Shown: positions 1 to 29,388 of the stretch, one piece after another
How the letters are laid out: each line of letters starts with the position of its first letter
How positions within the stretch are numbered: position 1 is the stretch's first letter
From: a virus
Strand: one strand, 5' to 3'
DNA: 64,000 nucleotides
Virus record (IMG/VR): IMGVR_UViG_3300009370_000007
Location: 1 to 64,000 of that record
Made by a program: the position numbers and the translations under genes
The notes under the pieces: model-generated
Told to the model about the DNA's origin: nothing
Database searches by the model: none
What the model saw: the letters and a program-made list of their open reading frames with translations, nothing else

Positions 1-368
1 GGAACCACGGTGATAGTTCCCGTCTCAAGAAACTTCTTCATCGCGGCAGAATCGTTGTTGGAGTTGGAAAGGCGCAGCGTGTGATCGCTGGCAGTCTCGC
101 TGCGCCGAGTGGCGCGGCGCGAGAAGACCGGAGCGGCGAAGGACTCGCGCTCGCCGGTCGCGTCTTTGAAGGAAGACCACGGGGATCGCTTCGCGAGAGC
201 GTCAACGCTCGCCTTGCGATGGGCAGTCAATTCGTCCGCAGACAGAAAACGCTCGCGGGATGCATGAAGCATCGCGCGAGCGTCGTCAAGGGATACGCCC
301 GGAAGGGCAGAACGGATCTCGTCCAGATCCGTCCAAGTAGCTGTTTTTATTGAGTTTTTCTGTGCCAT
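1..368 (-). CDS. Hypothetical protein (partial, runs off the window); GC-rich, possibly an early gene
   Basis: Not in the ORF track. ATG at 368 with an upstream GAGAAGGA RBS; the frame is open to base 1 (MAQKNSIKTATWTDLDEIRSALPG...). A TG-C-TATGCT extended -10-like motif lies near 401-409. Confidence 0.6.
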   Translation of the reverse strand, partial: MAQKNSIKTATWTDLDEIRSALPGVSLDDARAMLHASRERFLSADELTAHRKASVDALAKRSPWSSFKDATGERESFAAPVFSRRATRRSETASDHTLRLSNSNNDSAAMKKFLETGTITVV

Positions 369-446
369 AAATCTAAGTCCTTCTCTCACCTAGGAACCAA
401 AGCATAGCACAGCTTGGAGGAGGATGCTCCCCCCCGGGAATCTGTA

Positions 447-601
447 GGCGAATACAGGGGCACTAGAAAAGATAACACATAAATGTAAGACTTTCCCCTT
501 TAAAATCAGGGACTTAGAAGGAAATCTTAAGGGCGAACACAGGGGCACTAGAAAAAATAAATTGGGGGAATCTGGGTTTCCCCTTTAGAATCAAGGGGTT
601 A
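447..601. repeat. Imperfect tandem duplication with 85-bp period
   Basis: GGCGAA(T/C)ACAGGGGCACTAGAAAA at 447 and 532; TTTCCCCTTTA(A/G)AATCA.GG...TTA at 492 and 577. Confidence 0.85.
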
Positions 602-793
602 CAGCGTTTTTAAGAGAGGGACACGCGATTGCCTGGGTTCTCGCCGGGGGGCGGAGACAGGAATGGTGCCCTTCGTGAAATTGAATATCTATGTTGAAGT
701 TATATTGAAGAACTAAAGAAAAGTTTTTTCAGGGATACCCCTTGAAAAATCTGAACCATCATACTATATAAGAGTGTCTACTTTAGAATACCT

Positions 794-988
794 CTAGAGG
801 CCAGAGTCTTTATTCTCTTCAGAATACTTCTTATACTGGTTCTTGGAATGTCTCTTGTGTCGGTGTTTCATTCTGACCCATTCTTTTCGATCATATTTTA
901 TAGATTTATGATTACTATATTCTTTATTGATTATCAATACCGTACATAACGATCCCAGCAATCCAGCAAAAGTCCATGCAAGTGTCAT
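794..988 (-). CDS. Small membrane-anchored basic hypothetical protein
   Basis: AAGGAGG RBS, N-terminal hydrophobic helix, K/R/H-rich tail; ACTAAATA late-promoter variant at 1038-1045. Confidence 0.6.
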   Translation of the reverse strand: MTLAWTFAGLLGSLCTVLIINKEYSNHKSIKYDRKEWVRMKHRHKRHSKNQYKKYSEENKDSGL

Positions 989-1045
989 GGCTTTATCCTC
1001 CTTTTATTTCAAAAAACTATCACGATCTATACCTAAGTATTTAGT

Positions 1046-1642
1046 CTAACTATCCCCTCTGGTGATTGCCATGATTCTCTTAATCTGCCTCTCTACAATT
1101 GGCTTACGGTTAGGCCAGTAGATATATTTCTTCTCTAGAGACTCTGGTTTAATCAAATTAATTAGCAATGGTATAATCAACTTTTCAACATCCTTGAGCT
1201 TCTCATCTACGGCAGCCTCCCTACCTTCGATTGCTTCGGCGAGTCTTCGTTCCACTTCTGCCTTGCGCTTCTCTGGATCTCCGATTGCTGCCATGATCTT
1301 GTCGAGCTTTTCTTTGGTTTCGGCTGACTCTTCGACTACGGCATTTACCTCTGCGGGCGCTGCTGATTGTACACTATCCACATGATCTAGAATCTGATCT
1401 AACTTAGACTCGATATTCAATTCATCAAAATCGAGTAGTGCATTGATACCATTAACTCCGCTAATGATCTTATCAATCTTAGTCTCTAGATTGGAAATAC
1501 CTTGGACGTTAGATTCTAGAACTTCAGTCGCCTGAGATGGAGCAACAACTTTATCGCTCAACTCCTCGGCGCTAACTGCCTCCATCCCAAAGTCTTCTTC
1601 CTCAAACCCTTTTAGAAAATCTTCGTAGTCTTCTTGTGCCAT
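1046..1642 (-). CDS. Acidic coiled-coil hypothetical phage protein
   Basis: 198-aa ORF tightly coupled to the upstream gene; C-terminal LIIPLL..L......YIYWPNR segment. Confidence 0.7.
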   Translation of the reverse strand: MAQEDYEDFLKGFEEEDFGMEAVSAEELSDKVVAPSQATEVLESNVQGISNLETKIDKIISGVNGINALLDFDELNIESKLDQILDHVDSVQSAAPAEVNAVVEESAETKEKLDKIMAAIGDPEKRKAEVERRLAEAIEGREAAVDEKLKDVEKLIIPLLINLIKPESLEKKYIYWPNRKPIVERQIKRIMAITRGDS

Positions 1643-1643
1643 T

Positions 1644-2390
1644 TTACTTTACCTTTGCGTATGGTGCCCGCACATCTAAGTCTCCCTTTGCAAGAAGGTC
1701 TGCCGCCTGTGTATGCTGTGCCTTATCTGCATCAATGACAGGCATATCAGCTCGGGGTGGGGCTCCTTTAGGTGGGGTAGATCGTTGAATCTTTTTTAGT
1801 CTCGTTTCTAATTCAACTCGACCACCAATGTTTATTAACCATTGTGTTGCCTTTGCTTTATTATAGAACTTTGAGTTCATGTTCTTTCCAGTAAGAACTG
1901 CATCAACAGCATCTTCTATGGTTGCCTTGAAGATGTTTACATCTCCTCCTGCTGGAGTCCCACGACGCTTGTTACCAAACACGTCTCCCAATGCGCGAAG
2001 CACAGGAACCAGATCACCAATCTTTAACTTGGCCTCAATTCCAGAGATCGTTGCCTTGGGGTCATTGAATATCGTTGCTGCCCAACGATGATGTCCATCA
2101 AGAATTCTTTTATCTTTTGAAACAATGGCTCCAAGGTCGCCGCCTTTGACACCATTGATTGCCATGCCTAACGCCTTGCCGAGATAAACCGAATCTTGCG
2201 ATGCTTTAAGGTTTGTCGCCTTCCAAGTCTTTGGGGTCGCCTGTACAATATCATCCGTCTCATTACCATCCATTTTTCCTTTTCTTGTAAATATCTTTTT
2301 CAATATATCAGTTATTGGATTAGGGAAATATTTTTTATTTATTTCCTTAGTCCGTAGCTCTTCATTTAAATGATGCTTAAAACTTTTCAT
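1644..2390 (-). CDS. Putative internal head protein with ParB/Srx-like domain
   Basis: N-terminal MKSFKHHLNE capsid-targeting-like peptide; IVSKDKRILDGHHRWAA ParB-type motif; own TATAAATA promoter. Confidence 0.7.
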   Translation of the reverse strand: MKSFKHHLNEELRTKEINKKYFPNPITDILKKIFTRKGKMDGNETDDIVQATPKTWKATNLKASQDSVYLGKALGMAINGVKGGDLGAIVSKDKRILDGHHRWAATIFNDPKATISGIEAKLKIGDLVPVLRALGDVFGNKRRGTPAGGDVNIFKATIEDAVDAVLTGKNMNSKFYNKAKATQWLINIGGRVELETRLKKIQRSTPPKGAPPRADMPVIDADKAQHTQAADLLAKGDLDVRAPYAKVK

Positions 2391-2421
2391 GCTATCCCTC
2401 TAAGTAAAGGTTCTACAACAT

Positions 2422-2429
2422 TATTTATA
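2422..2429 (-). promoter_or_regulatory. T4-type late promoter TATAAATA
   Basis: Exact gp55 consensus in the intergenic gap upstream of the ParB-like gene. Confidence 0.75.
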
Positions 2430-2435
2430 TTATAA

Positions 2436-2777
2436 TTAATCCACAATCTTTAATACTGTATCAATCAACCATCCTACCAAACCTGCCAACACAACCACCA
2501 TAGAAAGGATGGTATATACCTTTGATTTGAATTGGTCAAATTCGTGTTTAAGTTCTTCTGTATCCACTCGCTTGGCTTTTAATGTATGCAGATTATTCAG
2601 GCTCTCTCGCATATCAATCACGTCTTGTTTTGTGACCGAGGACATTCCGCTGTTATCAACAATCATTCTCAGGTTCCTAAAGTCATGGCGCAACTCTTTC
2701 AGTTCTTGTTCAAGTGCCCCGAACTCTCTGTCTGTAATAGACCAAGGCCATCTATTTTCCTGTTCTTCTTTTGCCAT
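2436..2777 (-). CDS. Coiled-coil protein with C-terminal transmembrane helix
   Basis: Heptad-like N-terminal part followed by VYTILSMVVVLAGLVGWLI. Confidence 0.65.
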   Translation of the reverse strand: MAKEEQENRWPWSITDREFGALEQELKELRHDFRNLRMIVDNSGMSSVTKQDVIDMRESLNNLHTLKAKRVDTEELKHEFDQFKSKVYTILSMVVVLAGLVGWLIDTVLKIVD

Positions 2778-2784
2778 TGAATTA

Positions 2785-3054
2785 TTACTCTGGGTTGGTT
2801 GGTCGTTGATTCTCTTCTTCTAGAATATCAGAGATTCGTTGCTCGTATGAATCTCCCCATAACTTCCGTTCAAATACCTGTTGCTGGTTCAGTTGTTCTA
2901 CAATAGTAGTCAGCTTGTCCGTGTTCTCATGGGAGTCTTCTGCCCGGAACACCCAATGGGATACACCAACAATAATTCCAATGAACGTCGCTGCCGTAAT
3001 GATGGAAGTCATAATCCGCATCGGGCTAATTTTCAATTCAACTGTCTTTTCCAT
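2785..3054 (-). CDS. Single-TM hypothetical protein
   Basis: Likely start MEKTVELK at 3054 (GAGGA RBS); hydrophobic helix IMTSIITAATFIGIIVGVS. Confidence 0.6.
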   Translation of the reverse strand: MEKTVELKISPMRIMTSIITAATFIGIIVGVSHWVFRAEDSHENTDKLTTIVEQLNQQQVFERKLWGDSYEQRISDILEEENQRPTNPE

Positions 3055-3064
3055 TTTGTCCTCT

Positions 3065-3226
3065 CTATTCATCCACTTCAGATATATGTTTTGCCCAATC
3101 GTCCCCATACTTCTCTTTCAATTCTTTAATAATTTCATGAAGTGCATTTCCCATTTCCTTTGGTGTGACCTCAACATTATCCTCATCGCCATAAATTTCT
3201 TGTAATGGTTGTTTCTTAGTCGTCAT
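3065..3226 (-). CDS. Small hypothetical protein (53 aa)
   Basis: Below the ORF-track cutoff; MTTKKQPLQEIYGDE...EVDE*, GAGGA RBS, fills the operon gap. Confidence 0.5.
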   Translation of the reverse strand: MTTKKQPLQEIYGDEDNVEVTPKEMGNALHEIIKELKEKYGDDWAKHISEVDE

Positions 3227-3383
3227 AATTTAAATCCTCTTCTGTTATTTCTAAAATATCTTCTTCCTCAATACCAAGACCTTCGACCATGCTATCCCTT
3301 ACAAATACCGGAAGATCCTTTTGATCTTGGATTGAACTCTCAATGACTTCATGTGGAAATTTTGATTTAGACTTCTTTCCCAT
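3216..3383 (-). CDS. Small acidic hypothetical protein (55 aa)
   Basis: Below the ORF-track cutoff; MGKKSKSKFPHEVIESS...LNYDD*, overlaps both neighbours as in a coupled operon. Confidence 0.45.
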   Translation of the reverse strand: MGKKSKSKFPHEVIESSIQDQKDLPVFVRDSMVEGLGIEEEDILEITEEDLNYDD

Positions 3384-3624
3384 TTGATAATACATCCATA
3401 ATTGATCTATTAATAGACTCCTTTGTAGTTACTACTTGCTCTACAAATAAAGTTTCGCCATTTCTAATTCTTTTCATATCATTAATGAAATTTTGAGTAA
3501 TCGGTTTTCCATCAGTTCCCTTTTGACTCATTTCGATTTTGGTCTGATCTTCTTCTGTAATGCGTTCTTTATTGACAGGCTCTTCACCCTGCATCATTCT
3601 ATATGTATCGGTCAAACTTGCCAT
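3367..3624 (-). CDS. Hypothetical protein
   Basis: 85-aa ORF with AGGAG RBS, coupled to the upstream stop. Confidence 0.6.
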   Translation of the reverse strand: MASLTDTYRMMQGEEPVNKERITEEDQTKIEMSQKGTDGKPITQNFINDMKRIRNGETLFVEQVVTTKESINRSIMDVLSNGKEV

Positions 3625-3625
3625 A

Positions 3626-4135
3626 TTACTCTTCTCCTATTTCTGGTGGTGTTACTTCTGGTTGTCTCAGTCTAGGTTCTCTACGATTATAATGTTGAGT
3701 TACAATAGAAAGATTTTTTCTGTCATTATTTAATGGATTGTTGTCCTTATGGTGGACATCCTTTCCATTAATTTCATCATTGCTTTTAACCTTCTTCTTC
3801 ATAATCCTTCTTGCCGAGTTTCTCGCAGACCTTCTTTCTATCTGGTCAGGCCGCGAATGATAATTCGCATATTCTCTTTTATAATCTCGCTCTGATAAAT
3901 TCTTTACGCGAGACAGAGTAATCTCATGCTGATGTTCTGGATACATTCCTTCAAGTATCTTAGATCCAGACTCAATGGCTTCATCCTGAGAATCTTCAAA
4001 TACAATAAAGAATCCTTTATATCTCTCATCCTCTTCTGAAAATACATCGAATGCAATCTTCCATGCAGACTCTTGCTTGTTGGATGTTTCTTCTTCTTCT
4101 TGAATATTCTTTATAAGTTGTTTAAATGATTTCAT
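3626..4135 (-). CDS. Putative internal head protein with C-terminal HNH nuclease-like domain
   Basis: MKSFKQLIKNIQE N-terminus; RDYKREY...R..RN.AR...GKDVHHKDNNPLNN...NL motif follows an LSE linker. Confidence 0.7.
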   Translation of the reverse strand: MKSFKQLIKNIQEEEETSNKQESAWKIAFDVFSEEDERYKGFFIVFEDSQDEAIESGSKILEGMYPEHQHEITLSRVKNLSERDYKREYANYHSRPDQIERRSARNSARRIMKKKVKSNDEINGKDVHHKDNNPLNNDRKNLSIVTQHYNRREPRLRQPEVTPPEIGEE

Positions 4136-4746
4136 TAGTTTGGACTCCCTACCATAATCTTCAAATGGTTACTTCCTCCTAGATTGCGCTCATACCATCC
4201 AACGTAATCTGGATACTTCCCGTTTGGATTTGCCCCTACCCATGTTAACTTCTTTCCGGGGAGGAGTTGTCTTACCTTCTCTTCGCTATTGACGTAGGGG
4301 ATCTTGTACTTTTTAATTAAAACATGGGCGATGGCATCGGAGACTTCAGCATAATTTCCCTTTGTTCTCAGTATCTTATTAGTTTTATTTAACATAATCT
4401 TCTTTGCTGCTGCCGATCCATCGGTTGCGCTCCCTGTAAACTTCAGGCCTCCCGGTCCTCCCTTTGCAAACTTGACTGCATCTATCTCAGGATCTTTGTC
4501 AATATCCACAACGAGCCATTGAGTAAAGTCCGAAGGAATATCAGATACTTTATTAAAATCAAGATGTCCACCAATGGGTTCATAGGTCTTCTGGATCAAA
4601 TCAAAAATATCCTTTGTTACGTCGGTGTCTGGATTGTGTAATATATGTAGGGGCGCACGAAACCATTTGCGTTTCGTTCCTTTGGTTATCGTGGGAACAG
4701 ATAGATCGCGCTTCTCTGCGATGAGGTATTGGTTAAAGGATTTCAT
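4135..4746 (-). CDS. Putative internal head protein
   Basis: MKSFNQYLIAE N-terminus, close to the T4 IP targeting peptide MKTYQEFIAE. Confidence 0.7.
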   Translation of the reverse strand: MKSFNQYLIAEKRDLSVPTITKGTKRKWFRAPLHILHNPDTDVTKDIFDLIQKTYEPIGGHLDFNKVSDIPSDFTQWLVVDIDKDPEIDAVKFAKGGPGGLKFTGSATDGSAAAKKIMLNKTNKILRTKGNYAEVSDAIAHVLIKKYKIPYVNSEEKVRQLLPGKKLTWVGANPNGKYPDYVGWYERNLGGSNHLKIMVGSPN

Positions 4747-5426
4747 TTCTTTTTGCTCTTCTCTTTTTGTTTCCTATGGGCATCCCGAGATACCTGCTTT
4801 GGATCATCGGAGATGATGTTCCCAAAGTTGCCTCGGAGCTTTAGAGTATCCTGCATGGATCTTTTTGGACTTGGAAGATTTGCACCAGAGGTCAACTTGG
4901 AAACATACTTCTCTGCTTCTGCCTTGTTTCTCATGGGAGCAGAGATGCTCATCCAGCCTACCCCCCCTAATGCATACCACTTCTTGTCCACAGGATTCTG
5001 GGCAATGATGACGCTGTGTCTTTCTTTGCGTCCGGCCTTGACAGTCTTGAAGGATGCCTTTGTGGTTTCCCCTTTTTTCTGAAGGGCAACCGAATCACCC
5101 TCCACAATGGGTCTTCCCTTCTTCTTCTGGAATGCCACATACTCTTTATAGTATGGATAACTCTTGGGTTCGTTGGCACGTTTCTTTTCTTTGGCTTGCA
5201 ATACAATACATTTAAACCATGCTTCCTGTGACGTGTATACTCCAGCCGCTCCCATCCTCTTGGCAGCACCAGCATCTACGCGAAATTTTCCATTCTCATC
5301 AGCAACTCTTCTCTGAAGTGAAAATCCACGCCTTCCTTGCTTGGCAACCCAATAGACATTGCCGGGTTTTCTCTTCTCCCCAGTAGGCTCTGCCGTTTCA
5401 TTTATATATTGGTTAAATGATTTCAT
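4743..5426 (-). CDS. Putative internal head protein (two basic modules)
   Basis: True start is probably MKSFNQYINE at 5426 (ATGA overlap with the upstream stop); internal IVE|G linker. Confidence 0.7.
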   Translation of the reverse strand: MKSFNQYINETAEPTGEKRKPGNVYWVAKQGRRGFSLQRRVADENGKFRVDAGAAKRMGAAGVYTSQEAWFKCIVLQAKEKKRANEPKSYPYYKEYVAFQKKKGRPIVEGDSVALQKKGETTKASFKTVKAGRKERHSVIIAQNPVDKKWYALGGVGWMSISAPMRNKAEAEKYVSKLTSGANLPSPKRSMQDTLKLRGNFGNIISDDPKQVSRDAHRKQKEKSKKK

Positions 5427-6274
5427 TTTGTCTCCCATACTGTTTCGTCGCGCATCTTCAATGCCTGTAGGGTTCGAGATTTTTTCTCTCCCCCCTTGGG
5501 GTTCCAGATCCGAATCACCAAATCTTTATTATCGTTCTTGCCCCCGGCAACCCAATCCATGATACCCAAAGAAGTTTCATTTCTATCCCACCCTTCGCCT
5601 GTTACTACTTCTTGATGAATGGCATTGTCGGCATCCCAGATTAAGAGCTTCCCTACCTTATCCACGATGAAGCGAGCCTGCTTCCATCTGATCTTTTTTA
5701 AAAACCCTAACGTCTCCCCGGCACTTGGATTCTCCAATCCAGTAATGCTCTCTTTCTTATGGGCACCTTTGTATGGAAGGGAGACGAACAGGGGAACCTT
5801 CTTTTCTTCAAGGCTTTCATTCCTCTTCCTTGAAAACACAAAATGCACCTCGTCACTCTTGTCAAGTTCTCTTGTGTTATATCCATTCTTTCTCGCAAAC
5901 ACCTTTGCAAACCGAGAGTAGAGTTTGGTTCGACTTCCGGCTCCATCCTTTTCTGTCTTGTCGGCAGTAAAGGAAAACAGATTGGGGCTCACCTCTTTGA
6001 CGAATACCTCAAGCAACTTGGCGACTGTTGAAAAGACTCGGACGGCACTCGTCCCCTGTGTTCCGGTGATTCCCATATCGTTACCTGTCTGAGATGCATG
6101 AAATATAATTTCCCAACCAATGCTCACCTTCAATGCCTCAAAGTGATACGTCTGTTTATTGTCCGTGACAAACGAGGCATTCCACACCTTATCCTCAATG
6201 AAGCGATTTCGTTTCCATCGGTATGGCTGGTTGCCTACTTCTTGGAGTTGTATGTATTGCACGAAGGATTTCAT
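5423..6274 (-). CDS. Putative internal head protein (two modules)
   Basis: MKSFVQYIQLQE N-terminus; internal NESLEE|K linker. Confidence 0.7.
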   Translation of the reverse strand: MKSFVQYIQLQEVGNQPYRWKRNRFIEDKVWNASFVTDNKQTYHFEALKVSIGWEIIFHASQTGNDMGITGTQGTSAVRVFSTVAKLLEVFVKEVSPNLFSFTADKTEKDGAGSRTKLYSRFAKVFARKNGYNTRELDKSDEVHFVFSRKRNESLEEKKVPLFVSLPYKGAHKKESITGLENPSAGETLGFLKKIRWKQARFIVDKVGKLLIWDADNAIHQEVVTGEGWDRNETSLGIMDWVAGGKNDNKDLVIRIWNPKGGEKKSRTLQALKMRDETVWETK

Positions 6275-6276
6275 GT

Positions 6277-6756
6277 CTACCTCTCGGTGAAGTCAACCGT
6301 TGCATTTTTCTTCTGCATATCTGCAATGAATTCACCAATAGACTTCTTGTCTGCAAGGGCAGATTTATTGTAACTCTGGATGTCAACCTCAACCTTGTAT
6401 CTCTTGTCTGTCTTGTGCTTGATCTTTGCCTTCTTGAGTTCCTTCACCAAGTCCCTTGCATAGGCCACGCCCCATCGTTGTGAATGGGAATCGCCAATGT
6501 CCATCAACCGTTCCCATACAAATTCTTCGGTATCCTCAGATTGTCGTTTCGCTGCCACAGGATCTTCGTCATAGAAGTATTCGTATACAGCATCGAAGAA
6601 TTGAACATTCCTTCTGTCGGAGAGTTCCGCTCCAGCCATGACTCTTGCATACTCCTTGGGAAACTTGTCGAGGATTGCCTGGAGCTTTGGGTTAATCCCT
6701 CCGAGGAAGTTTATTCTGAGGTCTTCGTTAATGAGATATTGACTAAAGGTTTTCAT
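6277..6756 (-). CDS. Putative internal head protein sharing a domain with the 1244-aa polyprotein
   Basis: True start is probably MKTFSQYLINE at 6756 (GGAGG RBS); the C-terminal GDSHSQRWG...VDFTER domain is paralogous to 10445-10660. Confidence 0.7.
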   Translation of the reverse strand: MKTFSQYLINEDLRINFLGGINPKLQAILDKFPKEYARVMAGAELSDRRNVQFFDAVYEYFYDEDPVAAKRQSEDTEEFVWERLMDIGDSHSQRWGVAYARDLVKELKKAKIKHKTDKRYKVEVDIQSYNKSALADKKSIGEFIADMQKKNATVDFTER

Positions 6757-6758
6757 TA

Positions 6759-7241
6759 CTATATTCCTCCCAACTCTTTCTCTGCGGCAGGATTCACTAC
6801 TTTGGCTTGAATCTTCGCCCACTTCTGAGCTTCTGCCTTGCTCTTGAATCCATTGGAGACGGGCATCCACTTGTTTTTTCCGACATGACCCATTGCATAC
6901 CACTTCTTGTCATGTGGATTCTTCTCTACGATATACTTTGTGCCAGACCATCCTTCTAGCTGAAAGTCGCGTTGGGTCTGTCCCTTATGATGAAGTTTAT
7001 TTACCTCCATATGTTTGAATGCCGCCTTGGCTTCTCTGTCGCCCTTCTTGGCTCTCTTTGCAATTTCCCTAGAAACCAAGTCGCGAGTCTTGGCCCACTT
7101 CTTGTCTGTCTTGACAAGTTTTTGCCCTGACTGTTGAGTGTTGAGCCATACGAACATTGGTTCAAGATCCTTGGTTGTCTGCCGTGCAACGTCTCTAGGA
7201 TTTGACATATCTTCAAGTATGAATTGGTAAAACGATTTCAT
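6759..7241 (-). CDS. Putative internal head protein
   Basis: MKSFYQFILE N-terminus; FQLE|G linker followed by an NP.DKKWYA.G module shared with the 4743-5426 gene. Confidence 0.7.
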   Translation of the reverse strand: MKSFYQFILEDMSNPRDVARQTTKDLEPMFVWLNTQQSGQKLVKTDKKWAKTRDLVSREIAKRAKKGDREAKAAFKHMEVNKLHHKGQTQRDFQLEGWSGTKYIVEKNPHDKKWYAMGHVGKNKWMPVSNGFKSKAEAQKWAKIQAKVVNPAAEKELGGI

Positions 7242-7262
7242 TGATTGTTTCTTTCTTTCTTT

Positions 7263-7604
7263 TTATGGACTATGTGGTGGCTCGCCCTTTTTTAATGAGC
7301 GAAGATCCCTCTTTGCCTGACTATATTCTTTTCTTGCTTTTTTATATTGGCGTCGTAGTTCTCTTCTTTCGTCCACTAAATTCCTTCCATGCATACTATA
7401 TGCAAAAACTCCTTTTCCGCCTTGTTCTCTTGGAGTGAGCAGCGTTTGTATTTCATTCTGTCTTTGTTGTATGTTTGCAATTGAAGTTCTTATGCCTTCT
7501 AGGTTTCTTTCCTTGGCTTCAACCTTCTTTTGTTGAGTTGGGGAAAGTTTTTTCTTTCTGCCAAACAATTCATCAACTTGTTGATACTCTGTAAATGATT
7601 TCAT
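7263..7604 (-). CDS. Putative internal head protein (basic, helical)
   Basis: MKSFTEYQQVDE N-terminus; K/R-rich. Confidence 0.65.
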   Translation of the reverse strand: MKSFTEYQQVDELFGRKKKLSPTQQKKVEAKERNLEGIRTSIANIQQRQNEIQTLLTPREQGGKGVFAYSMHGRNLVDERRELRRQYKKARKEYSQAKRDLRSLKKGEPPHSP

Positions 7605-7609
7605 TGTCC

Positions 7610-10600
7610 TTACTCTCCAATTTCTTCGGTATAATAATCGAGTAATTCCTCTGCAATTGCCTGCTTGGTTTCCTTATTGATCTGCCTAGCCCATCCTGGG
7701 CTGGCGTGTTCTTTCTCATACTTCTTAATTCCATCTTTGACAAGATACATGAATGCCTTGATTGCCTTTAGTCCATCATAGGTTGCATCGCCAACCTTCT
7801 TTGAAAGGTTCTTGATAATGGATGTGGTGCGTTGTCGATAGAGTTGTCCGTCATTGGTGATATAGAGAACGAGTTCCCTGACCGTATTCTGATCGACAGC
7901 TTCTTTTAGATTTACAATATATTCTTCCGATACCTTATGCTTCTTCTTGGCCTTCTGTCCTGCACGATCCGCCTTTGATCTGGAATCTTCTGTTCCCGTA
8001 TCCACTACTGTCTGTTTCCCCTTTCCTCCTTCATGCTCAACCCTCTGAAGAATCCATTTGTATGATCCGTCTTCCTGTTTCATCGTCCGTACCATCAGAA
8101 CACCACCATGTCGTTTGGCTCCTGCGCGTAACTCGTCAATGTTCTCGACTTCTTCATTAACATTAATCTTTGAAGTATCGACGGTGCTACTATAGTTGTC
8201 CACAGGAAGATTATACTTTCTTGCCAGAGTTCCAATAGGAGAAACAGGCAACATGAAATGCTCCTGGGCAGCATCAAGGAATGCAACGACGGCAGCCTTC
8301 CCTGTTAGCCTCATTCGGTTTCCCTTCTTGAGTGTCTTGACAATATCGTTGAGTGCTTCCATGACTTGAACTGCAATGGGAGAACCAATTGGCAATGTCT
8401 TTTCCTTTTTGACTACTGCGGACTGTAGCATGACATAGAGTGTTGCCATTCGTACATCTTCAATATTCTTTGGAAGTCGAACTGCCTCATTGATTGATTC
8501 TAGTTCAACTCCTTCTCCCAGCTCTGTCCAGATTTTTGCAACATCTTTTGGTACTCCACCTCGCTCAAAATTATCATTCTTCTTTAGCCATTTCCTGATG
8601 AGGGGTCCGACATCTGCCTTTGGTCCCTTCCTCTTGCGAAGGGCATCAAACTTGCTAAAAAGTTCATCGTCTCCAAGGATTCCCTTCAATTTTGCCTCGG
8701 CTCCTTCCTTGGATGACTCTGGATCGTTATAGTTGCTCACTCCAACAGGAAAAGGTTTCTTCAAGAGTTTTCGTAACTTCTTGATTGTTGCTGGCTTGTT
8801 AGGAATAGACCATGTGCCTTCTTTGAGTTCGCTCTCCTGGGCAATCTGGGCAGCCAAGGCCTTCTTTCCCTCCTTGGCGGCATACTTGACTACTGCTCGC
8901 TTCAATGCTCGCTGGTCAATTTCTCCACCCTTGACAACTCCTGTGGTGTCGATCTTGCAAAGGGCATCCTTGAATTTCATTCCACCCTTGATTAGCATTG
9001 CAATGGTGGCTCCTAGTTTCTTGTAGTCGGTTCGTTCTTCAAGAGGAGGAAGAATCTCTTCTTTGACCTTCTTTTTCTTTTTTGCGGCCGCGGCGCGCTT
9101 TTGGGAATCTTCTTCCGAGCGCCGCTTTCCCATCCTGAGCAATCGACGCTGTAGGTCTGCCATTACGGCCGGATCGTCTCCGTCTCCACCACGGGGCTTC
9201 CCCTTGTAGGCTCGATTGAATTCCATTTCGTCAATCTCTACTTCTTCTTTGAACCCGAGTGGCTTATAGTATGTATAGACCAATTGTCCAGACTTATCCT
9301 CTACACCAATCGTAAGGGAATCATTCTTGCCATGCTTCTCCAGAAAATCATAGATGATTGCTGGAACCTGAGTGGAAACCATTGCTGGCTTGGACTGTGC
9401 CACTACCTTCTTTCCCTTCAAGGCTACAACAGTATATGGGGGAGTCCCCTTCTTAATGTCGCGGACTCCTTGAACACCGATTTTCTTTTTATAGATGGCT
9501 TCAGGAATGTACTCTTCCTTGACTGCTGCACCCTTCACAATGATCCCTCTCATACCCAGACCCTTGACGTTCTTTAGGAAAGTCTCTGCATCCTTCTTGC
9601 TGGCTAGTGTTGCAACCATGATGCGTCCCTTTTTGGTATAGGAATACTTGACGGTGTACGGATCTGATGCCTGACCGGGACGATTGCCTACCGCAAACTT
9701 CGCCTGCTTGGTTTTGGGTGTGTCTCGATATTCTGTTACAATAGTTTCTTCTCTTACATCACCCTTAATAATCTTTCCACCCATACCGAGTCCCTTGACA
9801 TCTTTAAGGAACTTCTTTGCATCGGCTTCTCCACTAAGGGTTGCCCACATCTTTCGACCTTGCTTGTCATACCAATACTTGACGGTATAGGGATCTTCGG
9901 CTCCTCTTTTCTCTGTGATGATAACAGGAGTCAGGATCGTTGCACCTGTCTTGGGGTCCATTGCTGTTGCATATGGCTTTCCCTTGATCTTGCTCTTGAA
10001 GTCCTTGTGCAGTCTTGCATAGTCCTTCTTGGACATGGTATAGTCATCACCATCCCATCGTCCACCTCTTGCATCGCGATCCTTGGAGGGTTCAAACTTA
10101 CTGCCACGGTGATCTCCTCGATATTTCTTGGCGTGTGACGGTGAGACACCAATGCGTCCCTTGGCCATTTTATGGGCACCACTATCCAGTCCACCTTCGC
10201 GAATTCCTTTTGCTGAAACATTGCCCTTGGCTGAAACTGTCATCTTCTGCAAATTGAAATGTTTCTTTGTTGCGGCAATTCTCTGAGAATGACTGCCTTT
10301 TTGTTTTTCATAGAAGGCCTTGATTTCATCATTGGAAGGAATCCCGCGCAACCGCATATGAGCCAGACGCGCCTTCTCCTTCTCATTTCCCATGCCGCCC
10401 TCATTAACAAATTCCTCAAATCGTTTTTTGCGTCCCATTGCGTCCCTTTCTGAAAAATCAACTCTTCCGTTGTTCTTCTTTATATCTGCGAGTAGATCAC
10501 TAACAGGCATTTCTTTTGCGAGAGATGAACTGTTGTAACTAGTTATATCAAAACTAACATAGTATGCATTGTCCGTCTTATGTTTAACATTTGCCTTCTT

Positions 10601-11344
10601 GAGCTTTTTTATGAGATCCCGTGCATGAATCTTTCCCCACCTCTGGGAATGATGATCTCCTGCATCGAAGTTGACCATGACGGCCTCGTTGATTGCAACT
10701 GGTTTTGCTCCCGGTCCTGATTGAGCCAGAATGACCCATCCAGGTCCTTCGGGTAGTTTATCGCTGACTAGACCCGTTGCTCTCTGTGCAGCCACGGCAC
10801 CATGATTCTTGCCAACCTTTGCGGCACCAATAGATGATGCCCTTTTAGAAACGTGACCGATAACCTTGTGGTATCCCCTCTTGCCTTTGATCTCTGCATA
10901 GACAGGAACCTTTCCCTTGCCTACGTCGGTGGCTTCGTTAATAATCTCGTCTCCCTCGTCATTGGTAGTGATTTGTTTCGATTCTTCCTTGATTGCGAGA
11001 ATTGTCTCATAGGAAGTCTCGCCAGAATTCTTATGGGCAACAACTTCTTTCCCTAATGGGCTGTTAGTTTTATCGCGAATCTCGATGCTATGAGAATCTC
11101 CGAGTCCTGTGCGCTTACGATAATTGGCATCGGGCTCATCTCGGATGTATACGATTTCTTTGCCAGACACTTTGGATAACTGTAGTCGTCTGAGGAGTTC
11201 TCGATATTGCTTTAGAATTTCCGGCGCGTCTGCTCTGAGTTTTCTTTGAATTGCAACAATCTGTTTGGTTGTGGGGTAGTTAATCTGCCCTAAATTTAAA
11301 GGCGCTTCATTCATGCTAATCAAGTTTTGCTTGGTTACTTTCAT
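7610..11344 (-). CDS. 1244-aa multi-module putative capsid-internal polyprotein
   Basis: About 14 acidic linkers ending [ILVM]-x-E separate small basic domains; one module is internally duplicated; downstream of a TATAAATA late promoter. Confidence 0.7.
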   Translation of the reverse strand: MKVTKQNLISMNEAPLNLGQINYPTTKQIVAIQRKLRADAPEILKQYRELLRRLQLSKVSGKEIVYIRDEPDANYRKRTGLGDSHSIEIRDKTNSPLGKEVVAHKNSGETSYETILAIKEESKQITTNDEGDEIINEATDVGKGKVPVYAEIKGKRGYHKVIGHVSKRASSIGAAKVGKNHGAVAAQRATGLVSDKLPEGPGWVILAQSGPGAKPVAINEAVMVNFDAGDHHSQRWGKIHARDLIKKLKKANVKHKTDNAYYVSFDITSYNSSSLAKEMPVSDLLADIKKNNGRVDFSERDAMGRKKRFEEFVNEGGMGNEKEKARLAHMRLRGIPSNDEIKAFYEKQKGSHSQRIAATKKHFNLQKMTVSAKGNVSAKGIREGGLDSGAHKMAKGRIGVSPSHAKKYRGDHRGSKFEPSKDRDARGGRWDGDDYTMSKKDYARLHKDFKSKIKGKPYATAMDPKTGATILTPVIITEKRGAEDPYTVKYWYDKQGRKMWATLSGEADAKKFLKDVKGLGMGGKIIKGDVREETIVTEYRDTPKTKQAKFAVGNRPGQASDPYTVKYSYTKKGRIMVATLASKKDAETFLKNVKGLGMRGIIVKGAAVKEEYIPEAIYKKKIGVQGVRDIKKGTPPYTVVALKGKKVVAQSKPAMVSTQVPAIIYDFLEKHGKNDSLTIGVEDKSGQLVYTYYKPLGFKEEVEIDEMEFNRAYKGKPRGGDGDDPAVMADLQRRLLRMGKRRSEEDSQKRAAAAKKKKKVKEEILPPLEERTDYKKLGATIAMLIKGGMKFKDALCKIDTTGVVKGGEIDQRALKRAVVKYAAKEGKKALAAQIAQESELKEGTWSIPNKPATIKKLRKLLKKPFPVGVSNYNDPESSKEGAEAKLKGILGDDELFSKFDALRKRKGPKADVGPLIRKWLKKNDNFERGGVPKDVAKIWTELGEGVELESINEAVRLPKNIEDVRMATLYVMLQSAVVKKEKTLPIGSPIAVQVMEALNDIVKTLKKGNRMRLTGKAAVVAFLDAAQEHFMLPVSPIGTLARKYNLPVDNYSSTVDTSKINVNEEVENIDELRAGAKRHGGVLMVRTMKQEDGSYKWILQRVEHEGGKGKQTVVDTGTEDSRSKADRAGQKAKKKHKVSEEYIVNLKEAVDQNTVRELVLYITNDGQLYRQRTTSIIKNLSKKVGDATYDGLKAIKAFMYLVKDGIKKYEKEHASPGWARQINKETKQAIAEELLDYYTEEIGE

Positions 11345-11433
11345 TAGGGGTTTCCTTTATTAGAGCGCACAGAATTTTTTTGCGCGAAAAAATTATTTTT
11401 CTTTCATGGTCAGCTATCGACTTGAGGCTCGAT

Positions 11434-11472
11434 GGGGGACCGGGGACCTCAACAATGGTCCCCCGGTCCCCC
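11434..11472. other. Strong GC-rich stem-loop in the 5' leader of the polyprotein operon
   Basis: GGGGGACCGGGGACC-TCAACAAT-GGTCCCCCGGTCCCCC. Confidence 0.7.
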
Positions 11473-11499
11473 CGAACCATTTTAAATATAATCTGTTAC

Positions 11500-11507
11500 T
11501 ATTTATA
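11500..11507 (-). promoter_or_regulatory. T4-type late promoter TATAAATA
   Basis: Exact consensus about 155 bp upstream of the polyprotein ATG. Confidence 0.75.
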
Positions 11508-11871
11508 AAACTCAAAGTGTCTCTGAGTTTTTATCAGGAGAACTTCGAGTGCTCTTCGAGGAGCAGCTCGTCGAATTCGAGCCACCGCCGCGCCGTAATG
11601 AAATAAAACACAGAGAATCTTTGAGTTTTCTTTTTATATGCTGTATATGAACAAATAAATTAAAAAACTCAAAGGATCTCTGTGTTTTATATTTGAGAAT
11701 AGGCCGGCCAGGGAGATGACCTGGAGCGTACCTATGCACATACATACAATTTAATTAAAATTATAATTAAAAACTCAAAGGGGCATAGTGGTACACACAT
11801 ACAACAGGTGGTGTACTGTGTATGGTGTGTGTATGGTGTATGGTGTATGTGTGTGTAGAGAAAACTCGGAG
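11507..11871. repeat. Iterated AAAACTCAAAG motif with a ~28-bp inverted repeat
   Basis: Copies at 11507, 11619 (reverse), 11664 and 11770; variants at 11521 (reverse) and 11861. Arms 11601-11630 and 11662-11690 are nearly complementary. Confidence 0.8.
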
Positions 11872-12112
11872 GGGTTGTGTGTGACTGTGCGATGTGCTAG
11901 GCCCCCTTTGGGTGTGTCACTCACAAAAAAACGCGGAGGGTTGCGGCCCGTTGGCGAGCGCGCTGAGACAACTAATGATTTAATCTAAACTAAGGTTAAG
12001 AAAAAACCTAAAGGGGTTACACAGGGAAAAAGGTGGGATAAAGTGGGATAAAATGGACCGCCGCATATAAGCCGCATATACACGGCCCCTCCATATAGGG
12101 GGTCCTTTTTCA

Positions 12113-12847
12113 CTATAGGGTTTCTTCTTCTTCTTCTTCTTTGAAATGCTTTCTGTCCAGGGGAGGGAATATGGTAGTTCCTCTAAAATGAACAACCATT
12201 GCATATCTCGATCCTGCAATAACCGGCCTTACTCCATGTCGGGTCCATCCATCCCATACAATTCCATCTCCAATGTTTGTTTTTGTTGCATCTGATATAA
12301 GGGTTTTTTGTTCGCCTTTTTCATTATAGCCAGCAGAGATTATTACCTGGCCTCCAACATACCCCTTGTTTAGTGTAACAGAAAGAGTTGCCACATCGGG
12401 TTGTGGGGAGTATCCTTCTGCAATTGCATATTCATTGTTTTTTTGATCTATGTTATAGTCCATATGCATAATGGCTTCTTCTTTTTCTTTTTCTTTTTCT
12501 TTTTCTTTACTGGGGCTGTATTTACGAATCCATACTGTATCGTTCCATGAATCAAGAGTCTGTACAGGGGAATTTGGAATGAAGTATATATTCAACAATT
12601 GCATTATGTCTTTTAGATAACCATGTAGACGATGATTCATGGCCTTTGGATTCAGGATGGCCTCTGTGATGTAATCAGTAGAGATGTCCACAAGGGATTC
12701 TCTCTCATTCTCTGTATGGTACTGGATTAATTCCCTGGCCAATTCTGGATCATTGAATGAATCTTCAAACATATTGGGAAACGTAATTAGATACGGTGCC
12801 GAATTATGTAGATTTGTTTTAATCTTTTTCTTTTTTGTTGTTGTCAT
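12113..12847 (-). CDS. 2OG-Fe(II) oxygenase superfamily protein (prolyl-4-hydroxylase-like)
   Basis: HMD...TLSVTLN..Y.GG...GDGIVW....RHGVRPV..GSRY motif; likely start MTTTKKK at 12847. Confidence 0.85.
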   Translation of the reverse strand: MTTTKKKKIKTNLHNSAPYLITFPNMFEDSFNDPELARELIQYHTENERESLVDISTDYITEAILNPKAMNHRLHGYLKDIMQLLNIYFIPNSPVQTLDSWNDTVWIRKYSPSKEKEKEKEKEEAIMHMDYNIDQKNNEYAIAEGYSPQPDVATLSVTLNKGYVGGQVIISAGYNEKGEQKTLISDATKTNIGDGIVWDGWTRHGVRPVIAGSRYAMVVHFRGTTIFPPLDRKHFKEEEEEETL

Positions 12848-26396: not shown

Positions 26397-27596
26397 TTAC
26401 TCTTGAATAACATTCTTCTGTGTTCGAGCTAATGCGCCAACATAAGCAGACATTGTGCCGGTGGTTTCTTCAAAGATGCCACCCTCAACTTCCTGCTCCT
26501 CTACAATAAATTGCTGATTAGTTGTTCCTGTCTTGGGGAAGTAGTTTTCCCTGAGTGTGCCAAGAGCATTTGCATACTGCTCGACATCTTCAAAGTCTAC
26601 TCCTTCGGACAGTTCCTTCAACTTCTCATACTCTGTATCGACAAGACCATCAGAACTCTGAATAAGGAGTTCAGTCTTCTGATACTCATTGATCTGCTTC
26701 TGCATATCAATTGTCCTTTCAATACTTTCATTTAGTTCACCCTCTAGCTTATCGACACGATCTGCAAGAGTATCTGCTACATCGAGCTTCTCATCTGGAA
26801 TCTCGATATAATGTTCTGCGAAGAGATTGCGTAGTCCTGTAATGAACTCTTCACTAATCTCTGCCTGTAGACCCTTGGTGATTGCAAGCTCATTTTCCTT
26901 CTGCCATTCATCTACGGCATAGGAAAGATACTCGTCAACCTTCTCGGTCATATCAGTAAGATTTTCTTCGCGAGCTTCGGTTAGCTCTTCGTCAAACTTG
27001 CTTTCAATCTTCTCTAGCTCCTCATTTACCTTGGCAATGAGCGCAGCCTCAAAGATTATTGCTGCCTTTGACTTAAAGTCATCGGAAAGATTAACTTCGT
27101 CGTTAAACATTGCAGCAATATCAGCAGAAAAATCAACATCCTCTGCCTTTAGCCTAGTCTTCTCTCCCTTGTCGCCCTTCTTTCCAGCCTTGACCTTCTT
27201 TGTTACTTCTGTAGTCTTATCTACAGACTTGAAAATCTCGTCTGGATCTGCAACATTGGGATCGTCCTTTGCTTCGTCAAGATCGTCGTCCTCTTCAAGA
27301 GTAGTAAGAGAGTGCATGATCTTATCGAAGTGAGACTCTAGCTTGGTCTTCTTGGTATCCTGAAGCTGATTAAAAATAGCGCGAACCATAGCGGGCTTAG
27401 TCAACGATTCCTTAACCCCCTCTTCTTCATCTTCATCTTCTTCGTCTTCTTCTTCATCATCATCATCCTCAAAAGGTTCTTCGTCTTCTTCAGTTTTCTC
27501 CTGAAGGACTTCTTCTTCTGACTCAGAAGTTTCGCGAAGAAGCTCTTCGATTTCTTCGTCTGTGATGGCTTCTGTTGAAACGGTTTCTTCTGACAT
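26397..27596 (-). CDS. 22: Prohead core scaffold protein with acidic N-terminal extension
   Basis: F..KAAIIFEAAL, KVDEYLSY...EW..EN, FITGLRNLFAEHYIEIP; syntenic position. Confidence 0.93.
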   Translation of the reverse strand: MSEETVSTEAITDEEIEELLRETSESEEEVLQEKTEEDEEPFEDDDDEEEDEEDEDEEEGVKESLTKPAMVRAIFNQLQDTKKTKLESHFDKIMHSLTTLEEDDDLDEAKDDPNVADPDEIFKSVDKTTEVTKKVKAGKKGDKGEKTRLKAEDVDFSADIAAMFNDEVNLSDDFKSKAAIIFEAALIAKVNEELEKIESKFDEELTEAREENLTDMTEKVDEYLSYAVDEWQKENELAITKGLQAEISEEFITGLRNLFAEHYIEIPDEKLDVADTLADRVDKLEGELNESIERTIDMQKQINEYQKTELLIQSSDGLVDTEYEKLKELSEGVDFEDVEQYANALGTLRENYFPKTGTTNQQFIVEEQEVEGGIFEETTGTMSAYVGALARTQKNVIQE

Positions 27597-27655: not shown

Positions 27656-28309
27656 TTACAATTTTGAAAGAAAGTTCTTAAATACCCTTAATTGAACGGC
27701 TTCTCTATCGGCTCGTTTTGATTTTTCAATTTGAGATTTAAGTTCTTGAATGGTTCTTTCTTTAATTATACCATTTTCCCAAATCCATTCTTTTCCTTCC
27801 ATCATTCCTTCAACAAATGCATCGGGAGCAGATGGATCTGCAACAATATCTGCCGCAGTAGCAAGATAAAAATCATCTTGCACTACATTTACGCCTCGTC
27901 GTGGCTTCAATGAACCCATTCCGCGAGACGAAACACCTAACTTGGCACCCTCATCAATAAGATTCTTTGCAATCTTTCCATATGGGGTGTCCATTAACTT
28001 TGCTTTTCCTACCCAGTTATCATTATCTGGGCTTAATTCCTTAATCATATGAGAAACTCTTTCTAGATTAATGACCGGCCCATCGGGATGACCTAGTTCT
28101 CCGAAGGCTCGATTTTGCTTAATATACTTGTCGTTATATTTCGCAACTTCCCTTCCGAGAGTCTCTCGGGGATAGACTCGTCCATTTCTATTCTTTGTTT
28201 CTGCCTGCATGAAGACGCCCTTAATATAATAATCCTTCTTGCCGGATTTAGTTTCTTCTACCAAAACTTCAATTTGATCGTCGTCTACTACTTCGGTAAT
28301 GAGTTTCAT
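27656..28309 (-). CDS. 21: Prohead maturation protease
   Basis: MKLITE, IKGVFMQAE.KNRNGRVY, GELGHP, GVSSRGMGS, DIVADPSAPDAFV. Confidence 0.98.
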   Translation of the reverse strand: MKLITEVVDDDQIEVLVEETKSGKKDYYIKGVFMQAETKNRNGRVYPRETLGREVAKYNDKYIKQNRAFGELGHPDGPVINLERVSHMIKELSPDNDNWVGKAKLMDTPYGKIAKNLIDEGAKLGVSSRGMGSLKPRRGVNVVQDDFYLATAADIVADPSAPDAFVEGMMEGKEWIWENGIIKERTIQELKSQIEKSKRADREAVQLRVFKNFLSKL

Positions 28310-28320
28310 TTGATTTTCTC

Positions 28321-29388
28321 CTAAAAAGATATATTCTTGATTGCAAAGCCTGACATCTTAAGAAATCCTGCTCGATTTTTTGCCAAGGTAGATGCAAACT
28401 TAACTTTGTTTTTTACACTTAACGCATCATATACTTTTGTGACAGCATTTGCAGTCATCATATCTACTAAAAGATGTTTTCCATCAGCCAATTTAACCTT
28501 CTGGCCCTGTGAATCTTTAACAATTTTTCTCATGGTATTGATAATGGCTTCTCCCTTGCCCGCCTGTTCATGGACAGCGACCGATTCTCCTGCTATTGAA
28601 ACTGAATCTGCTGCCTTGTCCAACATATCTTGCTTTTTCTTGTTGGCCTTCTCAGCTTTTCGGACTAAAGTATTTTTCCTAACCTTTTTAATTGCCTGAT
28701 CGACATCTTCCCGAGTCTGTTTATTTTTCAGGGCGGCCAGACGATCTTCAATTGCCTTTTTTTGTGCTGCCTTCTGTTCTTTCTTTTCTATTCTTGCGAG
28801 ACGAGCCTTATCTGTTGGGGAAACTCTTGCCACAAACTTTTTGATTCCTATCTTTCCCCCTTTGATGGCCTTGTCTGCAACATAATCATCTGCCGCAGCC
28901 TCATGAATAAAAGATTCGCCTGTGGCAATTGCTCCTGTTTTTCCTTTTCGTATTGCCTTTTCCTTTTGTTTGTCCCTGACTTCTCTTGCCTTTAATGCTT
29001 TTTTTTGAGCCTTTGCTGCGGCTCTGGTTCGCCATGAACTTCCGGGCTTCATTGCCGCCTTGTGCATTTTTCTGGCAGCAGTTTCAGCCCTATCTTTTGC
29101 CTCTATTCCCTTTATCGTTGTTCCTGCCTTCTTGGCTCTTAGTCCTGAAATTCCCTTTCCCAATGCATAACCGATTGCCAGTCCACCGGGAGTCAGACCA
29201 ACCGCCCTTCTGGCTTTGTTGAGCTTTGCTAATTTGCCAAATTTTCCTGCTGCTGCGACTCCTCCTGCTGCACCCAGGCCTGCAGTTTTTGCTACCTTTC
29301 CTTCAATTACTGGAGTTTCTAAAGCCAACTCAGGATTAGAAGTTGAGCAGATAGATTCGGCTCGAAATTCTTTAAAGGGTTTATTCAT
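28321..29388 (-). CDS. Prohead core / internal protein at the gp68 position with K/A-rich cargo modules
   Basis: Probable start MNKPFKEFRAE at 29388, overlapping the upstream stop; VIE|G, FIHE|A and VHE|Q linkers; synteny with gp21. Confidence 0.65.
   Translation of the reverse strand: MNKPFKEFRAESICSTSNPELALETPVIEGKVAKTAGLGAAGGVAAAGKFGKLAKLNKARRAVGLTPGGLAIGYALGKGISGLRAKKAGTTIKGIEAKDRAETAARKMHKAAMKPGSSWRTRAAAKAQKKALKAREVRDKQKEKAIRKGKTGAIATGESFIHEAAADDYVADKAIKGGKIGIKKFVARVSPTDKARLARIEKKEQKAAQKKAIEDRLAALKNKQTREDVDQAIKKVRKNTLVRKAEKANKKKQDMLDKAADSVSIAGESVAVHEQAGKGEAIINTMRKIVKDSQGQKVKLADGKHLLVDMMTANAVTKVYDALSVKNKVKFASTLAKNRAGFLKMSGFAIKNISF

Follow-up and report, generated by a model that had tools for sequence, protein, structure and literature searches.

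The first ten residues of the T4 internal protein IPIII are sufficient for packaging. Within this capsid targeting sequence (CTS), residues 4 and 7 serve targeting and residues 8 and 10 serve processing, and Tyr4 and Phe7 are the targeting determinants in T4 (PMC9026906). The prohead protease gp21 cleaves the CTS from IPI, IPII and IPIII (Mullaney and Black 1996, as cited in PMC9026906 and PMC3012670), and polymorphic internal-protein loci are described for T-even phages (Repoila et al. 1994, as cited in the same two papers). Here we analysed an array of eight genes at 1644-7604, minus strand, of IMG/VR virus record IMGVR_UViG_3300009370_000007, the products of which all start with a leader resembling the CTS. 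The window, i.e. the whole stretch of DNA that was analysed, covers positions 1 to 64,000 of this record and is the first 64 kb of one viral contig of 107,022 bp.

The T4 enzyme Alt is delivered along with the DNA and has a propeptide at either end (PMC9026906). Giant phages of the phiKZ type (201phi2-1, phiKZ and SPN3US) have a protease related to T4 gp21, which cleaves many proteins inside the head at several sites and after Glu (PMC9026906). It has already been suggested that the CTS is a general loading route for varied proteins in T4-like phages (PMC9026906).

We consider it probable that the eight genes encode head cargo of the T4 type, which would be loaded via the scaffold, cut at leader and seam by an S77 protease, retained in the head and ejected together with the DNA.

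Leader and genes of the array

The eight proteins are numbered P1 to P8 by increasing coordinate. In all of them the leader is found at the initiator Met and is 10-13 residues long. An arrow marks the predicted cut in the list below and throughout the text.

1644..2390, minus strand: P1, 248 aa, leader MKSFKHHLNE↓E; mature part basic, pI 9.8
3626..4135, minus strand: P2, 169 aa, leader MKSFKQLIKNIQE↓E; acidic N-module, basic and weakly HNH-like C-module
4135..4746, minus strand: P3, 203 aa, leader MKSFNQYLIAE↓K; basic, pI 9.5
4743..5426, minus strand: P4, 227 aa, leader MKSFNQYINE↓T; basic, pI 10.2; true start 5426, not 5438
5423..6274, minus strand: P5, 283 aa, leader MKSFVQYIQLQE↓V; two folded modules, ~14-150 and ~178-283
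6277..6756, minus strand: P6, 159 aa, leader MKTFSQYLINE↓D; true start 6756, not the GTG at 6903
6759..7241, minus strand: P7, 160 aa, leader MKSFYQFILE↓D; basic, pI 10.0; seam Q94-L95-E96↓G97
7263..7604, minus strand: P8, 113 aa, leader MKSFTEYQQVDE↓L; very basic, pI 10.7

The consensus of the leaders is M-K-S/T-F-x-Q/E-aromatic-[LI]-x(1-4)-E. Position 4 is invariably Phe. At position 7 six members have Tyr or Phe, the exceptions being P1 (His) and P2 (Leu). Every leader is closed by [LIV]xE at residues 10-13, the ends being LNE, IQE, IAE, INE, LQE, INE, ILE and VDE from P1 to P8.

MKTYQEFIAE had been quoted in the original prediction as the start of T4 IPII and IPIII, and this is how both open in the T4 record. 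Translation of that record gave MKTYQEFIAE↓A for these two proteins and MKTFKEF... for IPI. A search of T4 with the pattern M-K-[ST]-[FY]-x-[QE]-[FY] returned only ipI, ipII, ipIII and gp61.1, and the reversed control gave 0 matches. The [LI]xE motif is also present at the sites of T4 IPIII, IPI, gp23, gp24 and Alt. T4 gp61.1 (NC_000866 18966-19130) is a hypothetical protein of 54 aa that opens with MKTFKEFIKE↓D, a full CTS-like leader; from its sequence it is possibly a fourth CTS-bearing protein of T4.

For the exclusivity of the leader, all ATG frames of at least 40 codons in the whole genome were scanned (n=1185). Exactly eight frames start with MK[ST][FY], against about 0.67 expected from the residue frequencies at positions 2-4. 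All eight lie within 1644-7604 on the minus strand; the genome-wide scan thus returned the array genes and no other frame. With a relaxed leader pattern the whole genome contains one more plausible gene, which starts at 29388 and adjoins gp21, and one internal TTG.

The leader starts listed in the original prediction (2390, 4135, 4746, 5426, 6274, 6756, 7241 and 7604) are all present on the minus strand. Two of them had been described as hidden inside longer open reading frames (ORFs), and we found 5426 within 4743-5438 and 6756 within 6277-6903; each of these MK starts is preceded by a Shine-Dalgarno sequence (GGGAG or GGAGG). The description as an array of eight holds for the number of leader genes in 1644-7604 but not for their contiguity, as five leaderless ORFs lie between P1 and the other seven. 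The genes from 7604 to 3626 are tightly packed, with overlaps or with gaps of at most 21 nt. Similarly, the proteins had been called otherwise unrelated, which is mostly so, except that P4 and P7 have a stretch of 38 residues in common (53% identity) and that P6 shares 74 residues with a neighbouring protein of 1244 aa. Since the mature parts show no relationship beyond the P4/P7 module, common ancestry of the eight genes was ruled out. The neighbouring features are:

2436-3624: five small, leaderless, acidic ORFs interrupting the array, pI 4.2-5.4
7610..11344, minus strand: 1244-aa protein, start MKVTKQNLISMNE↓A; basic, pI 9.7; contains the P6 module

Two of the interrupting ORFs (2436-3108, minus strand) have a predicted transmembrane stretch, located at the C-terminus of a 113-aa ORF and near the N-terminus of an 89/107-aa ORF.

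A common N-terminus might also result from a signal in the nucleic acid, either a translation-initiation enhancer or a recombination junction for the shuffling of cassettes. Every member opens with ATGAAA, an AAA second codon is a known enhancer of translation, and the array genes form a variable, cassette-like block. However, Ser3 is encoded by AGT, TCA, TCC and TCG in different members, and the hydrophobic residue (Leu/Ile) by TTA, ATA and CTC. Selection thus appears to act at the peptide level, because the synonymous Ser3 codons differ while the residue stays. Furthermore, residues 8 and 10 are conserved as well, at variable spacing, the proven internal proteins of T4 bear the same peptide pattern, and internal seams that have no start codon align with the leader junction (see below). 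We therefore regard a signal in the nucleic acid as extremely improbable. Judged from codon usage, from its disorder in the P1 model and from the homologues of P1 and P3 (see below), the leader works at the peptide level and has been added to the mature proteins.

Modules and predicted protease sites within the members

Several members were read in the original prediction as mini-polyproteins with internal linkers. For three of the four linkers named there, LSE↓R (P2), SLEE↓K (P5) and QLE↓G (P7), this agrees with our alignments, in which the linkers coincide with the leader junction of stand-alone homologues. Cargo modules joined by seams are supported in P5, P7 and P2 on the basis of these alignments.

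The AF2 model of P5 has two confident domains (pLDDT 82, pTM 0.52) with residues 156-174 below 50, and the disordered linker opens at L155-E156-E157↓K158. Elsewhere the two modules are found as stand-alone proteins, of ~135-175 aa for the N-module (~1-152) and 100-165 aa for the C-module (~158-283), many of them with a leader of their own, as well as inside proteins of 400-2700 aa. In the alignment, stand-alone N-modules stop at P5 residues 150-152, and the leader junction ITE↓K of the stand-alone C-module aligns with E157↓K158. Where a copy of the N-module is placed inside a long multi-module protein, [LIVMF]x[ED] is found directly before it in 27 of 28 cases. Foldseek matches of the N-module were SpeG, RimL and antizyme (E 4e-3 to 2e-2, probability ~0.99, ~135 columns), and the model thus weakly suggests a GNAT- or antizyme-like fold.

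In the long proteins P0122-P0247 (from metagenomes, 400-2700 aa) the internal P5 N-module nearly always comes directly behind [LIV]xE, and many of these proteins open with M-x-[LI]-x-E-[LV]-[FL]-D-x-P. This start reads as a five-residue leader, like the T4 Alt start MELITE↓LFDE.

The C-module of P7 (97-160) has 34 short homologues of ~71-73 aa with 70-94% identity. Nearly all of these carry MK[ST]F...E↓ directly before a conserved SKYIV...NP.DK.WYA block, and since their leaders directly precede this block, the seam of P7 coincides with a leader junction. P4 shares a module with P7 in its C-terminal part, and I107-V108-E109↓G110 is a candidate seam of P4.

In P2 the seam is L80-S81-E82↓R83. 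A homologue of its C-module is a stand-alone, leader-bearing protein of 91 aa, in which ITE↓R is located ~3 residues from the aligned LSE↓R of P2 (locus L009). The sequence DVHHKDNN...N...HYN of P2 gave 22.7 bits with HNH_3, the cut-off being 24.8 bits. PHROG matches were phrog_4590 (E 2.9e-11) and HNH families (E 1e-4 to 6e-3), and the C-module may be HNH-like, a weak assignment from sequence.

P6 (residues 86-159) and the 1244-aa protein (residues 227-300) have 57% identity over 74 residues. In P6 this C-module is preceded by V80-W81-E82↓R83, and in the 1244-aa protein AINE↓A is found before it and FVNE↓G 15 residues after it. The 1244-aa protein is a candidate polyprotein, and its gene is the head of the transcription unit of the array.

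For P1 we found 375 homologues, most of which open with MK[STNKR]F..[YHF][ILM].E↓E. The motif DGHHR is invariant in 45 homologues, with 58 invariant positions in all. The AF2 model has a pLDDT of 88.7, and residues 1-11 are the sole segment below 50. The top eight VIA rows all have the ParB/sulfiredoxin (Srx) fold with weak scores (Z 3.5-4.7), and the same is true of the top Foldseek rows (E >=0.046). No match was found in Pfam, and the PDB sequence search with the P1 profile returned nothing. The model thus hints weakly at a ParB/sulfiredoxin-like core. One subgroup of the P1 family (P0007-P0013) has an unrelated leader, MSYKSL...[IL]xE↓E or MPYNSL...NE↓E, with the protease site and the mature N-terminus kept. 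By its sequence this alternative leader may be a lineage-specific tag.

The P3 family comprises 36 homologues. Near ones have leaders of differing length, and distant ones have no leader and begin at the conserved mature N-terminus. A search of the ESM Atlas for P3 gave no usable match. Homologues of P1, P3 or the P7 module with 83-90% identity are present in marine metagenomes.

The proteins could be targeted to the prohead and processed there and still be purely structural, i.e. fillers of the scaffold core or counter-ions of the DNA. The mature parts have a pI of 9.5-10.7 in six of the eight members, and these parts together with the 1244-aa neighbour are strongly basic, reminiscent of the lysine-DNA contacts of T4 internal proteins (PMC3012670). 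The enzyme-like assignments are, moreover, all weak. Conserved folds are however unnecessary for simple counter-ions, and the invariant positions of P1 over 45 homologues, DGHHR included, and the defined domains in the models of P5 and P1 speak against a filler. Elsewhere the leader tags clear enzymes, e.g. ADK, NUDIX and lysozyme proteins, and the T4 internal protein IPI* specifically inhibits a restriction enzyme (PMC3012670). We find a purely structural role unlikely for these reasons.

Genomic context and distribution of the leader

The phage is an uncultured marine myovirus of the T4-like type, distant from T4, and its gp23 is ~50-52% identical to that of cyanomyoviruses and of pelagiphage HTVC008M. 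Genes for gp23, a gp22-type scaffold, a gp21-type protease, the gp20 portal and the large terminase are found in the window. The following features bear on the array:

26397..27596, minus strand: gp22-type scaffolding core protein (phrog_237, E 1.3e-65; T4_CASP, E 2.5e-59), the predicted docking partner of the leader
27656..28309, minus strand: gp21-type prohead protease (phrog_207, E 6.8e-81; Peptidase_S77, E 3.4e-32, 112 bits), predicted to cut after the Glu of [LIV]xE
28321..29388, minus strand: 355-aa Lys/Ala-rich basic protein, start MNKPFKEFRAE↓S; the start in the ORF track is a TTG at 29457
2422..2429, minus strand: TATAAATA box of the T4 late-promoter type, 32 nt upstream of the P1 start
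11500-11507, minus strand: TATAAATA box heading the unit that opens with the 1244-aa gene

On the minus strand there are ten copies of TATAAATA, eight of them within the intergenic 2.9% of the genome. Each of these eight boxes precedes a gene start on the minus strand by 20-58 nt (in one case 237 nt), among them the starts of gp22 and gp18. Sigma-70 promoter-like sites in 1-12500 were not above chance. Between the box at 11500-11507 and the 1244-aa gene there is an ORF of 54 aa (11316-11480, minus strand), which overlaps the start of that gene.

The 355-aa protein is the additional gene obtained with the relaxed pattern. It adjoins gp21, at the place that gp67/gp68 occupy in T4. Its leader is degenerate and CTS-like, and going by this start it is possibly a ninth leader-bearing protein.

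The first ~390 bases of the window (1-390) are far GC-richer than the remaining genome (~40% GC) and contain an ORF on the minus strand that continues past the end of the contig. An acquired gene, a chimeric join or an artefact of the contig end may explain this segment.

Relatives of the locus were searched for in several ways. Among cultured phages no match was obtained in Megablast with 1000-12000 or in tblastn with P5 and the 1244-aa protein. A related-locus search of IMG/VR using the 1244-aa protein found no relative, and nothing was found in an Rfam search of 1-13000.

The leader itself was searched for in IMG/VR using a DNA pattern encoding MKSFxQY[LIFM]xE. By our own estimate near-zero chance matches are expected, since the pattern holds roughly 37 bits. 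At least 119 stretches of IMG/VR contigs were matched. Among the matches listed, 50 loci have two or more MK[ST][FY] ORFs, and one has seven. When ORFs among these matches were picked by their first four residues only, the later positions of the leader were E/Q at 6 in 53 of 80, Y/F/H at 7 in 57, I/L/V at 8 in 50 and Glu at 10 in 44. Many leader loci contain T4-like sheath, terminase or portal genes. Peptidase_S77 was found in seven of ten large leader-bearing contigs, and in all four of those that are >=90% complete.

In about 1 Mb of IMG/VR DNA the leader is present on at least 157 unique proteins, which form at least 59 BLAST clusters. Pfam matches of 50 cluster representatives include cytidylyltransferase-like, ADK, NUDIX, Mu_F, PAP2, DnaJ, VanY, lysozyme, NT5C and HNH. 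The leader is portable, as judged from this number of clusters and from the array, where only P4 and P7 share a short module.

Among cultured phages, the pattern MKx[FY]xx[FY][LIFM]xE has a single genome-wide match in S-SM1 and a single one in Syn9, in both cases T4-GC190, annotated as 'cytidylyltransferase'. T4-GC190 starts with MKKFSAFLNE in S-SM1, MKKFSAFLSE in Syn9 and MKSFSQFLTE in P-SSM2, and among the matches listed it is the largest cluster of leader-bearing IMG/VR proteins. It is named among the proteins found by mass spectrometry in purified S-SM1 virions (Sullivan et al. 2010, PMC3037559), and because of this detection at least one leader-bearing enzyme is present in particles outside the T-evens. 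The sections of that paper that were searched do not mention a targeting leader. No homologue of T4-GC190 was found in the genome of the present phage.

P-SSM2 (AY939844 99763-100529) also has two adjacent leader-bearing hypothetical genes, PSSM2_114 (MRTFQEFLQLCE) and PSSM2_115 (MKSFKQFLEE), in its structural region upstream of gp13.

These data also bear on other destinations. Short N-terminal tags have many uses, and the leader might be a sorting signal for export, membrane association or chaperone binding, or a degron. A signal peptide was ruled out, because the leader has no hydrophobic core. It has no signal-peptidase site either and is only 10-13 residues long, it terminates in a protease motif and co-occurs with S77 protease genes, and one leader bearer, T4-GC190, is reported from purified cyanophage particles. 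We judge a destination other than the capsid to be very unlikely.

Proposed route into the head and comparison with described systems

The reading of the leaders as T4-type CTS, put forward in the original prediction, is supported by the targeting determinants, by the protease and scaffold genes, by the pattern control in T4 and by the virion protein of S-SM1. Under this reading, the array genes would be transcribed late, alongside the structural genes. The leader would dock the cargo onto the gp22 scaffolding core during prohead assembly, and the gp21-type protease (27656-28309) would then remove the leader by a cut behind the Glu of [LIV]xE. The protease would also cut the internal seam in P5, P7 and P2, and probably in P6 and P4, giving two separate modules. 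The mature products, which are mostly basic, would remain with the DNA in the head and exit with it at infection. We infer packaging, cleavage, ejection and a role in the host from the analogy with T4. Possible host roles are hinted at only by the weak fold and motif matches (ParB/Srx-like P1, HNH-like P2 and GNAT-like P5), and no function could be assigned to P3, P4, P6, P7 and P8.

Several observations weigh against this reading. Position 7 is non-aromatic in P1 and P2, and the residue after the Glu varies (E, E, K, T, V, D, D and L from P1 to P8), whereas it is Ala in the T4 internal proteins. The motif [LIV]xE is weak and frequent by chance, with 7 copies in gp23 alone, and where it precedes a module it might simply belong to the conserved domain and not mark a cut. 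The function calls of the mature parts are weak (VIA Z <=4.7, Foldseek E >=4e-3, HNH_3 below cut-off). Finally, a search of the S-PM2 genome with the leader pattern gave no match, and HTVC008M has one unconvincing leader match and a T4-GC190 homologue that is without leader. As neither phage has a convincing leader gene, the tag is not universal in marine T4-like phages, and its presence in all of them was ruled out.

We are somewhat inclined to a broader view, in which the CTS would serve as a conserved address label in a large part of the T4-like superfamily, namely in T-evens, cyanomyoviruses and uncultured marine lineages, and could be read there from the sequence. Dozens of unrelated proteins, enzymes included, would be marked by it, and the cargo would be shuffled among stand-alone, two-module and polyprotein forms with the prohead-protease site as universal joint.

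Proteins codelivered with the DNA act ahead of any phage gene expression, which makes them prime candidates for takeover of the host and for counter-defence as a first strike. Only a handful of such proteins are known in T4. If the leader functions here as in T4, the cargo of uncultured marine phages becomes predictable from sequence, the seams predict the exact ends of the mature proteins, and enzymes without an obvious structural role in purified cyanophage particles would be explained. If the broader view is true, the delivered proteome of uncultured phages could be read off their sequences alone, with the present phage having one of the denser cassettes. The natural design of module plus cut site is additionally a template for the packaging of several foreign proteins in T4-type capsids.

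CTS-tagged internal proteins and polymorphic loci are already known in T-even phages (PMC3012670, PMC9026906). In the literature searched, the coverage of which is incomplete, no paper was found that describes the leader outside the T-even phages. The present analysis adds the dense cassette of eight genes in a far relative of T4, the comparative evidence for cargo modules which are joined by protease sites and exchanged among stand-alone, fused and polyprotein forms, and the link between the leader and a cyanophage enzyme detected in virions.

Cyanophage T4-GC190 has a leader of the array type and differs from the array proteins in having no homologue in the present phage. The ejection and inner-body proteins of phiKZ-like phages are similar in that separate fragments are cut free by a protease (PMC9026906), as predicted for the array. 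They differ in having another cleavage motif, no described MK[ST]F leader and far larger capsids, and they are non-homologous.

T4 Alt and gp24 are comparable head proteins, which gp21 trims N-terminally at short [LI]xE sites (MELITE↓L and MAKINELLRE↓S). Their leaders, however, are not of the MK[ST]F type, and neither protein is described as being split into independent modules.

The T-even loci, as cited in PMC3012670 and PMC9026906, resemble the array in being a variable set of diverse and mostly basic proteins with only the CTS in common, and they are read as arms-race cargo. They belong to close relatives of T4 that infect enterobacteria, whereas the array phage is uncultured and has ~50% gp23 identity to cyanomyoviruses and HTVC008M.

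The T4 internal proteins have an N-terminal leader of 10-19 residues with MK(T/S)(Y/F), an aromatic residue at position 7 and a terminal [LI]xE↓, as in the array. Their mature parts are likewise mutually unrelated, and homologues of gp21 and gp22 are encoded here as well. No Pfam or PHROG internal-protein match at E <=0.01 was obtained for the mature parts of the array proteins, so that the eight are not members of the IPI, IPII or IPIII families and have only the tag in common with them. T4 has three scattered genes, whereas here eight genes and the 1244-aa neighbour are found in one unit that is predicted to be late, the leaders measure 10-13 residues and vary in spacing, and several members consist of two modules with an internal site.

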